The position numbers were made by a program, and so were the translations under genes. Of a stretch of DNA of 48,718 nucleotides, positions 27,269 to 27,421 are shown piece by piece. The stretch's first letter is position 1. Each line of letters opens with the position of its first letter. Location: the IMG/VR virus record IMGVR_UViG_2597489870_000007, one strand, 5' to 3'. The notes beneath the pieces were generated by a model. It was given only the letters and a program-made list of their open reading frames with translations, had not been told where the DNA came from and ran no database searches. The DNA is from a virus (taxonomy: Duplodnaviria; Heunggongvirae; Uroviricota; Caudoviricetes).

Positions 27269-27421
27269 ATGAGAGGAATGCCAAGAGGAAGTCGAGGACA
27301 GAGGGCTGTCCAATCAACTGCAAGAAGAGCAAGACGATCAAATGCCAGCCATTCTGACCAATTAGGATGCCTGGCACTAATCATCGTTGGCCTGATATTT
27401 ATCTATTTCATGGCTAATTAG
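27269..27421 (+). CDS. Possible small tail-anchored membrane peptide (50 aa)
   Basis: Reads MRGMPRGSRGQRAVQSTARRARRSNASHSDQLGCLALIIVGLIFIYFMAN: Arg-rich N-terminus and one C-terminal hydrophobic helix. Below the ORF-track size cutoff and no clear SD. Confidence 0.25.
   Translation: MRGMPRGSRGQRAVQSTARRARRSNASHSDQLGCLALIIVGLIFIYFMAN

Follow-up and report, generated by a model that had tools for sequence, protein, structure and literature searches.

Between the lysis cassette and the terminase genes of a lambdoid prophage of enterotoxigenic Escherichia coli (ETEC) H10407 lies an unannotated open reading frame (ORF) of 50 codons, and the question raised by this locus is whether the ORF encodes a protein and, if so, what that protein might do. 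The prophage is IMG/VR record IMGVR_UViG_2597489870_000007, a stretch of 48,718 nucleotides that was analyzed as a whole and is called the window below; the region around the ORF is 100% identical to NC_017633.1. An earlier note, made from the sequence alone, had described a 50-amino-acid (50-aa) ORF between a moron gene and Rz, and it is present exactly as described, at 27269-27421 on the + strand. Comparison of its copies argues that this ORF, hereafter the small gene, is a genuine protein-coding gene missed by annotation, a point that we regard as settled short of an experiment. The whole of the reading that we prefer, to which we assign a probability of about 0.62, is that of a missed prophage accessory gene whose product would be a membrane-tethered peptide acting through a cytoplasmic basic motif. 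The gene and its two principal parts are as follows.

27269..27421, + strand: the small gene, unannotated, 50 codons, predicted to encode a tail-anchored membrane peptide; complement(5093683..5093835) in NC_017633.1
27278..27304, + strand: codons 4-12, MPRGSRGQR, where the family is most conserved; predicted to be cytoplasmic
27362..27412, + strand: codons 32-48, LGCLALIIVGLIFIYFM, the predicted single transmembrane helix, with only Ala-Asn after it

The small gene begins with the ATG at 27269 and ends with the TAG at 27419-27421, and its translation is MRGMPRGSRGQRAVQSTARRARRSNASHSDQLGCLALIIVGLIFIYFMAN (50 aa). Upstream extension of the ORF is impossible, since an in-frame TAA stands immediately 5' of the ATG. 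On one side it is flanked by a gene for a 106-aa protein (26731-27051, + strand), which we call the cargo gene, and on the other by the stop codon of Rz (27432, - strand); the stop codons of the small gene and Rz are convergent and 10 bases apart. The NCBI Prokaryotic Genome Annotation Pipeline (PGAP) annotates a single 106-aa hypothetical protein on the + strand between Rz and Nu1, and nothing from the cargo gene to Rz. The length of the ORF is not in itself informative. A complete ATG-initiated ORF of at least 50 aa, on either strand, is found in 44% of random 380-nt regions generated by a first-order Markov model with the same dinucleotide make-up. Because the length is at the level of chance, the coding status has to be decided by comparison with other copies, and it is the conservation pattern, not the ORF length, that is in excess over chance.

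A search of 5426 complete E. coli genomes located the 380 bp between the cargo gene and Rz in 54 of them (97.6-100% identity). Sixteen IMG/VR contigs and 4 metagenome contigs have the stretch too, and the latter 4, found with an exact upstream anchor, are near-identical. None of the 54 E. coli genomes has an annotated feature beneath the match, and PGAP was silent in each of the 16 E. coli regions that were inspected. Among 12 distinct haplotypes of the E. coli copy, the small ORF has 10 variable sites, of which 9 are synonymous third positions (codons 5, 8, 9, 12, 15, 17, 22, 30, and 49). The tenth is V40F, the sole amino acid polymorphism, which is conservative and lies within the helix. There are no indels and no stop codons in the ORF, and the 227 non-coding bases that flank it contain 10 variable sites, including a 1-bp indel at 27121. 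In a simulation under neutrality, which used an earlier set of 9 variable sites and kept the observed numbers of transitions and transversions, the probability of obtaining at least 8 synonymous changes was 1.8e-4. The synonymous bias is specific to the small ORF and not a regional property, since in near-identical copies the cargo gene has 2 synonymous and 6 non-synonymous changes and Rz has 22 and 16. The best alternative frame, an antisense ORF at 27238-27384, has a ratio of 6 synonymous to 3 non-synonymous changes.

More distant relatives were found by an exhaustive HMMER scan of 1.84 billion representative proteins, which returned two homologues, both exactly 50 aa long and aligned over residues 1-49: P0018, with 67% identity to the small peptide (E 1e-14), and P0019, with 47% identity (E 2e-5). 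Three further members came from a scan of IMG/VR guided by a profile. L046 has 50 aa and a GTG start after GGAGG; L047 is a P0019-type copy, also of 50 aa; and L048 has 61 aa, with the same N-terminus, a longer linker, and a different helix. The genome of E. coli SC476 contains a P0019-type copy that is likewise unannotated. The relatives thus comprise four diverged lineages at 47-67% identity, three of exactly 50 aa and one of 61 aa, so that with the window included the length of exactly 50 aa is kept in four lineages. Between lineages the proportion of synonymous differences (pS) is 0.60-0.85, with synonymous sites saturated, against a proportion of non-synonymous differences (pN) of 0.15-0.46, and the ratio of non-synonymous to synonymous rates (dN/dS) is about 0.07-0.29. 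L029 and L047 differ by 8 synonymous and 2 non-synonymous changes (dN/dS 0.07). The sense frame is the only one open in all five sequences compared (the window, L028, L046, L029, and L047), which represent the four lineages other than L048; in L029 and L047 the antisense frame is interrupted by a stop.

The same note had allowed that the ORF may be non-coding and had proposed the pattern of synonymous and non-synonymous change in homologues as a way to decide. That pattern favors coding both in the close copies (9:1) and in the distant ones (pN far below pS), and together with the length of 50 aa kept in four lineages it leads us to reject the non-coding alternative. By sequence comparison, the small peptide is the founding E. 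coli member of a rare, unnamed family found in five lambdoid or P22-like prophage lineages. It is a gene under clear purifying selection that was missed by every annotation layer (PGAP, Pfam, PHROG, and NCBIfam).

The rarity of the family is apparent from the other searches. Neither the peptide nor its V40F variant has an exact match among 15 billion predicted proteins; a word-indexed protein search with the peptide alone gave no match, and the same type of search with a three-sequence profile gave only the two clusters already known. Scanning the contigs of one genome per species with the peptide and a degenerate helix pattern returned nothing, a peptide scan of metagenome contigs returned only spurious Arg-rich matches, and a degenerate N-terminal motif scan of IMG/VR returned only contigs that were already known. 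DNA searches of phage records with L046 and L048 matched flanks only. Neither the small peptide nor the 106-aa cargo protein has a match in Pfam, PHROG, NCBIfam, or PADLOC, for the small peptide even at E up to 1-10 in NCBIfam, PADLOC, and Pfam, and we found nothing in the literature on the locus or the family.

The architecture of the peptide is simple. Residues 1-31 contain 8 Arg, all in the first 23 residues, and have a net charge of +7, while the best 17-residue hydrophobic window, residues 32-48, has a mean Kyte-Doolittle value of 2.77. This arrangement is general in the family: the segment before the single C-terminal helix has a net charge of +7 to +9, and the helix is followed by 0-3 residues; the mean Kyte-Doolittle value of the helix is 2.8-3.1 across the family and 1.5 in L048. 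AlphaFold2 predicts a continuous helix over residues 9-49, with a predicted local distance difference test score (pLDDT) of 91-93 for residues 31-50 and 60-73 for the N-terminus. The earlier description of a "tail-anchored peptide" with an Arg-rich N-terminus and a single C-terminal helix is supported both by the conserved architecture and by the helix modeled at pLDDT above 90. By the positive-inside rule, basic segments lie in the cytoplasm, and with the basic arm of the small peptide this would place its N-terminus inside. The predicted topology would thus be that of an inner-membrane peptide anchored by its C-terminal tail.

Family members start with M-(R/K)-(G/W)-M-P-R-G-S-(R/K)-G-x-R, in which M4, P5, R6, G7, S8, G10, and R12 are invariant (family alignment A3). 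The motif is retained in both L046 and L048. Its codons vary synonymously between lineages (CCA/CCC, AGA/CGT, GGA/GGT, and AGT/AGC), and the fact that the motif is kept through these changes indicates that selection acts on the protein. The polar N-terminal motif is more strictly conserved than the helix, and L048 keeps the motif while its helix sequence is replaced. These two observations make partner binding by a tethered motif the most likely mechanism.

The genomic slot is also shared. In the window, L028, L029, L046, L047, and L075, the lysis cassette is on one side of the small gene and the terminase genes are on the other, and the late genes run on the opposite strand. L048 is apparently in a comparable lysis-proximal region, judging by a flank that matches DNA beside Rz in one phage record, a comparison of position that leaves late-gene orientation aside; a Rz-like stretch lies about 2.4 kb downstream of its small gene. 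The surrounding backbone varies among small-gene loci. The packaging genes are Nu1/GpA, DUF1441/GpA, or Terminase_2/Terminase_6; the holins are of the essD, P22 gp13, or Phage_holin_2 type; the spanins are lambda-type Rz or DUF2514; and the endolysins also differ. Neighbors on the + strand vary as well, from the 106-aa protein in the window to a 145-aa protein plus a weak DUF2441 match in L028, a 143-aa protein (phrog_2266) in L029, and none in L046 and L047. In the window the late genes are all on the - strand, in the order antiterminator gene, DNA methyltransferase, holin essD, endolysin rrrD, and Rz/Rz1, followed by Nu1/nohD and, further left, the large terminase. Those with mapped positions near the small gene are listed here.

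27872-28369, - strand: endolysin rrrD
27432..27875, - strand: Rz (i-spanin), the final gene of the lysis cassette, resembling Rz of lambdoid phages
about 27476-27682: Rz1, embedded in Rz
25848-26393, - strand: Nu1/nohD, with the large terminase further left

Phage PhiR34_1, which has related flanks, carries bor in the same position and orientation, convergent with Rz. The guanine plus cytosine (GC) content is 0.37-0.43 across 26500-27450 and 0.50-0.56 in the flanks. The small gene thus has the marks of a moron: it lies between backbone genes, phages with related flanks have bor instead, and its GC content is deviant. It behaves as a mobile accessory gene that occupies the slot of bor. The likeness to lambda Bor extends to the position between Rz and the cos/Nu1 side, the antisense orientation to the late operon, and the convergence with Rz; like Bor and other Rz-cos accessory genes, the small gene has a lower GC content than the backbone and forms a mobile unit in different backbones. 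Bor itself, at about 97 aa, has an N-terminal signal peptide and a lipobox and is a lipoprotein of the outer membrane, whereas the small peptide has neither a signal peptide nor a Pfam Bor match and is predicted to have a C-terminal inner-membrane anchor, with its bulk in the cytoplasm. Membership of the Bor family was ruled out, given the polybasic N-terminus, the missing lipobox, and the lack of a Pfam Bor match.

At this locus we also observed a mosaic junction at about 26566. To its left are packaging genes of the Nu1/GpA type or the DUF1441 type, and to its right the cargo gene, the spacer, the small gene, and Rz move as one block with at least 97% identity. One copy of the locus is in L008 (NZ_CP174001.1), a 43,337-bp circular "plasmid" named pOHT76-1_1, where the match spans the record start; the record looks less like a conventional plasmid than like a phage-plasmid or a circularized phage genome.

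Expression signals were sought upstream of the small gene, where three features are relevant.

27257..27263, + strand: a weak Shine-Dalgarno (SD)-like purine run, GAGAGAG, ending 5 nt 5' of the ATG
27220..27228, + strand: a candidate extended -10 element, TGaAATAAT, read by eye from the sequence
27052..27268, + strand: the AT-rich 217-nt spacer from the cargo gene to the small gene, a 5' untranslated and promoter region or an operon spacer

The position aligned with GAGAGAG is a clear SD in the relatives, AAGGA in L028 and L048, GAGGA in L029 and L047, and GGAGG in L046, and these SDs are 5-8 nt upstream of the start. The statement that the ORF "lacks an obvious SD" was therefore too pessimistic, with a purine run 5 nt upstream in the window itself and clear SDs at the same position in the homologues. 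The TGaAATAAT string is conserved in L028. L048 has GTTACA-16-TACAAT about 100 nt upstream of its small gene, and in L046 and L047 the small gene stands alone between opposite-strand genes, which would imply a promoter of its own. The spacer has 9 variable sites, including the indel at 27121; it matches nothing in Rfam and does not resemble the loci in which distant cargo-gene homologues lie. Rz converges on the small gene, so late transcripts must cross it antisense, and this points to expression in the lysogen rather than during lytic growth.

On the reading that we prefer, the lysogen would produce the small peptide, and in lytic growth the late transcript, being antisense, would silence the gene. 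The basic arm of the peptide, of about 31 residues, would be held at the cytoplasmic face of the inner membrane by the C-terminal helix, and there the invariant motif would bind a specific partner, either protein or nucleic acid. The role might be protection of the lysogen, through exclusion of other phages or through modulation of a membrane protein or protease. The family is a new, unnamed one within a known kind, the small prophage-encoded membrane proteins, and an unusual mechanism is so far unsupported. A bolder version, in which membrane-tethered Arg-rich peptides constitute a new effector class that captures a specific nucleic acid or protein and so gives superinfection exclusion or host control of a kind not described before, seems to us a doubtful prospect. 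Its candidate targets would be incoming phage DNA, ejection proteins, a host protease such as FtsH, or RNA, and the cargo protein, which is Zn-finger-like, might cooperate with the small peptide. The prophage is that of a pathogen, and the slot is known for lysogenic-conversion genes such as bor. Were lysogen protection or modulation of the host membrane true, the peptide would be a new small-protein effector in phage-host biology, and the conserved cytoplasmic motif offers a direct handle for mutagenesis and pull-downs. If the gene had no measurable effect, it would still be a clean test case for small-ORF gene finders.

Several results weigh against this picture. The candidate extended -10 element is absent from the output of a strict consensus scan, and one haplotype carries A27226C within it. 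No consensus sigma-70 promoter was found on the + strand upstream of the small gene in the window, L028, L046, or L047. All 8 Arg codons are among the rarest in E. coli (five AGA, one AGG, and two CGA), and with the weak SD of the window copy they suggest that expression may be conditional or at a low level. With five lineages, and 54 of 5426 complete E. coli genomes, the family is very small, and few independent sequences stand behind the conservation statistics. A tblastn search of 50,697 phage records gave no match, the family includes no cultured phage record, and no homology to any characterized protein was found in Pfam, PHROG, NCBIfam, PADLOC, or the exhaustive HMMER scan. Protection or exclusion as the role is our best guess, drawn from analogy with other prophage accessory membrane proteins.

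The rare codons include the tandem pairs AGA-AGA and AGA-CGA, and expression of the small gene may depend on the supply of rare tRNA-Arg from the host, the window having no tRNA or tmRNA genes.

Among the alternatives, the one that survives best is a membrane-damaging small toxin, whether a type I toxin, an abortive-infection effector, or a prophage-addiction peptide. Its helix would depolarize or permeabilize the inner membrane, and its expression would be held low by weak signals, rare codons, or an antisense RNA. The size of the peptide and its single strongly hydrophobic helix fit such a role, as do the weak SD and exclusively rare Arg codons of the window copy. The abundant late transcript is necessarily antisense to the small gene, and promoter-like sites occur on the - strand at 27252->27224 and 27507->27478. 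Stabilization of prophages by type I toxin systems is known (PMC12648545). Nevertheless, the - strand promoter-like sites are no commoner than in shuffled sequences (4 vs 2.8 +/- 1.8), and L028, judged by eye from the aligned sequence, has not kept the one near the start. There is no Rfam family, and no dedicated antisense RNA gene was identified at the small gene by Rfam or by the - strand promoter scan. The strong SDs of the homologues (GGAGG and GAGGA) would be unexpected under tight repression.

The comparison with known type I toxins (Hok/Gef, Ldr, TisB, Ibs, ShoB, DinQ, and ZorO) likewise has two sides. They share with the small peptide a length of no more than 50 residues and one hydrophobic helix, and the small gene resembles theirs in having been missed by annotation, in being on a mobile element, and in being overlapped by an antisense transcript, here the late mRNA. 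Typical type I toxins have an N-terminal helix and a charged C-terminus; the polarity of the small peptide is the reverse, with a long basic segment first and the helix at the very end of the chain. Its sequence matches none of these toxins, nor Hok/Gef or any other toxin model in Pfam, NCBIfam, or PADLOC at E up to 1-10. The element conserved in the small-peptide family is the polar motif and not the helix, whose sequence is replaced in L048. A conserved polar motif is more in keeping with a specific binder or regulator than with a toxin that damages membranes generically, and we consider the toxin explanation unlikely.

The regulators MgtS, MgrB, AcrZ, MgtR, and SafA of E. coli and Salmonella are in the same size class as the small peptide and have a single-pass helix, and the expected mode of action, binding of a larger membrane-associated partner, is the same. 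They differ in having no homology to it and in being chromosomal and stress-regulated, whereas the small gene is prophage cargo. To our knowledge, a 31-residue polybasic cytoplasmic arm with an invariant motif is not a feature of any of the five. Like the small gene, small inner-membrane regulators have been overlooked by annotation (PMC12648545; bioRxiv 10.64898/2026.09.28.754932). The resemblance to small membrane toxins or regulators that the first inspection of the sequence had suggested is not established, since no toxin, holin, or other family model matches. The topology predicted for the small peptide is also that of ElaB, YqjD, and YgaM, whose only helix lies at the very C-terminus and whose N-terminal part is cytoplasmic. 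These are proteins of about 100 aa with a DUF883 domain that bind ribosomes, and the small peptide differs from them in having no DUF883 match (no Pfam hit).

A second alternative makes the small peptide one half of a two-gene module with its neighbor, for example as the membrane anchor or effector of a soluble sensor or enzyme.

26731..27051, + strand: the 106-aa cargo (moron) gene, WP_000025002.1, annotated by PGAP, upstream of the small gene and either its partner or a mere neighbor in the slot

The orphan family to which the cargo protein belongs comprises 17 clusters, from E. coli/Shigella, Leclercia, and Pseudescherichia, and homologues with 57-68% identity are in the same slot in Leclercia, Pseudescherichia, and others. 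H52, C56, C103, and C105 are invariant in this family and look like a zinc site by sequence. AlphaFold2 gave a confident alpha/beta model of the cargo protein (pLDDT 81), for which Foldseek found no match in the PDB with E below 0.7. The 2:6 pattern of the cargo gene is opposite to that of the small gene, and its non-synonymous changes include R47C in the window. The case for a module is that the two genes are adjacent and on the same strand in every E. coli-type copy, that L048 has a 60%-identical cargo homologue 237 nt downstream of its small gene (with the order reversed), and that both families are rare. Against it, the small gene is absent from eight loci that have four of the 57-68% homologues, and no called cargo homologue is among the listed neighbors in L028, L029, L046, and L047, the small gene being alone in the last two. 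The cargo homologue in L048 has a good promoter-like site of its own (TTGTCA-16-TATAGT). Because both families occupy the same insertion slot, their co-occurrence may reflect the slot and not a shared function, and a module of this kind seems quite improbable.

Very improbable, in our view, is a lysis-cassette accessory, for example a peptide that acts like an antiholin or modulates the spanins and in this way tunes or blocks lysis. The small gene does adjoin Rz/Rz1 or other spanin genes in the window and L028, it lies a few hundred bases to about 1 kb from lysis genes in the other lineages where this was examined, and its product is a small single-pass membrane peptide. However, at least three unrelated holin types are found alongside it, with differing endolysins and spanins, and Ivy and Rha genes can intervene between it and the spanins. 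The late operon is encoded on the other strand, so the small gene and the lysis genes are not co-transcribed, and no holin or antiholin model in Pfam or PHROG matches the peptide. The closest parallel in domain order is MS2 L, which has a basic N-terminal part and a hydrophobic C-terminal part; the N-terminal part is highly basic in the small peptide too. The small peptide differs in having no Leu-Ser in its helix or tail and in ending 2 residues after the helix, and its gene is in a double-stranded DNA lambdoid prophage that has a full set of holin, endolysin, and spanin genes on the other strand.

That the ORF arose by chance in the spacer, or that selection acts on an element of the other strand, be it the antisense ORF 27238-27384 or something in the late transcript, can hardly be credited: the 44% expectation for such a length, the silence of PGAP, the absence of the exact peptide from predicted proteins, the lack of a promoter in the window, the 6:3 ratio of the antisense frame, and the somewhat better folding of the - strand than of shuffles (z = -2.7) would all suit it, but the 9:1 pattern is specific to the sense frame, length and frame are kept at 47-67% identity with synonymous sites saturated, every other frame, the antisense one included, has stops in some or all lineages, and an SD is at a conserved distance from the start.

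Other identities were considered and ruled out. A twin-arginine signal peptide is inconsistent with the lack of a mature domain after the helix. A lipoprotein is inconsistent with the position of the sole Cys (C34), which is within the C-terminal helix and does not follow an N-terminal signal. A holin is excluded by the strand, opposite to the late lysis operon, and by the lack of a Pfam or PHROG holin match, and an L-type lysis protein by the absence of the Leu-Ser motif and of a C-terminal extension after the helix. The ORF is not a remnant of a larger gene, as the exhaustive HMMER scan gave 50-aa proteins only. We also rejected a structured RNA, the fold z-scores at the small gene being unremarkable (-1.6 for the + strand and -2.7 for the - strand, relative to shuffles); an Rfam scan of 25800-28700 at E up to 1 gave just two sub-threshold chance hits, both outside the ORF.

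Some local RNA structures may be noted. Within the small gene, an mRNA hairpin of about 14 bp is possible at 27340-27390 (+ strand, codons 25-39), pairing UGCCAG.CCAUUCUGA with UUAGGAUG.CCUGGCA. A GC-rich hairpin lies 3' of the small gene in L028 (about 4180-4200, GAAGCCC...GAGCTTC) and in L046 (about 4190-4215, GCAGCCC...GGGCTGC), with one compensatory stem change from A-T to C-G between them. It is not a canonical intrinsic terminator, since no T-run follows it on either strand. The window equivalent is only a 5-bp hairpin, AGCAA-AGA-TTGCT, at 27420-27432.

Two further genes near the lysis cassettes are of note. At the head of the late operon in the window, a 350-aa DNA methyltransferase (28652-29704, - strand) is encoded between the antiterminator region and the holin, and it is kept in most copies of this prophage type. 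In the P0019-type prophages, a gene for an Ivy-family inhibitor of c-type lysozyme with a signal peptide separates the small gene from the spanin gene and is on the same strand as the late genes.

L029 4279-4707, L047 4280-4708, and L075 4301-4729, - strand: Ivy-family gene

Its product is a periplasmic lysozyme inhibitor that is thus carried directly behind a phage lysis cassette.

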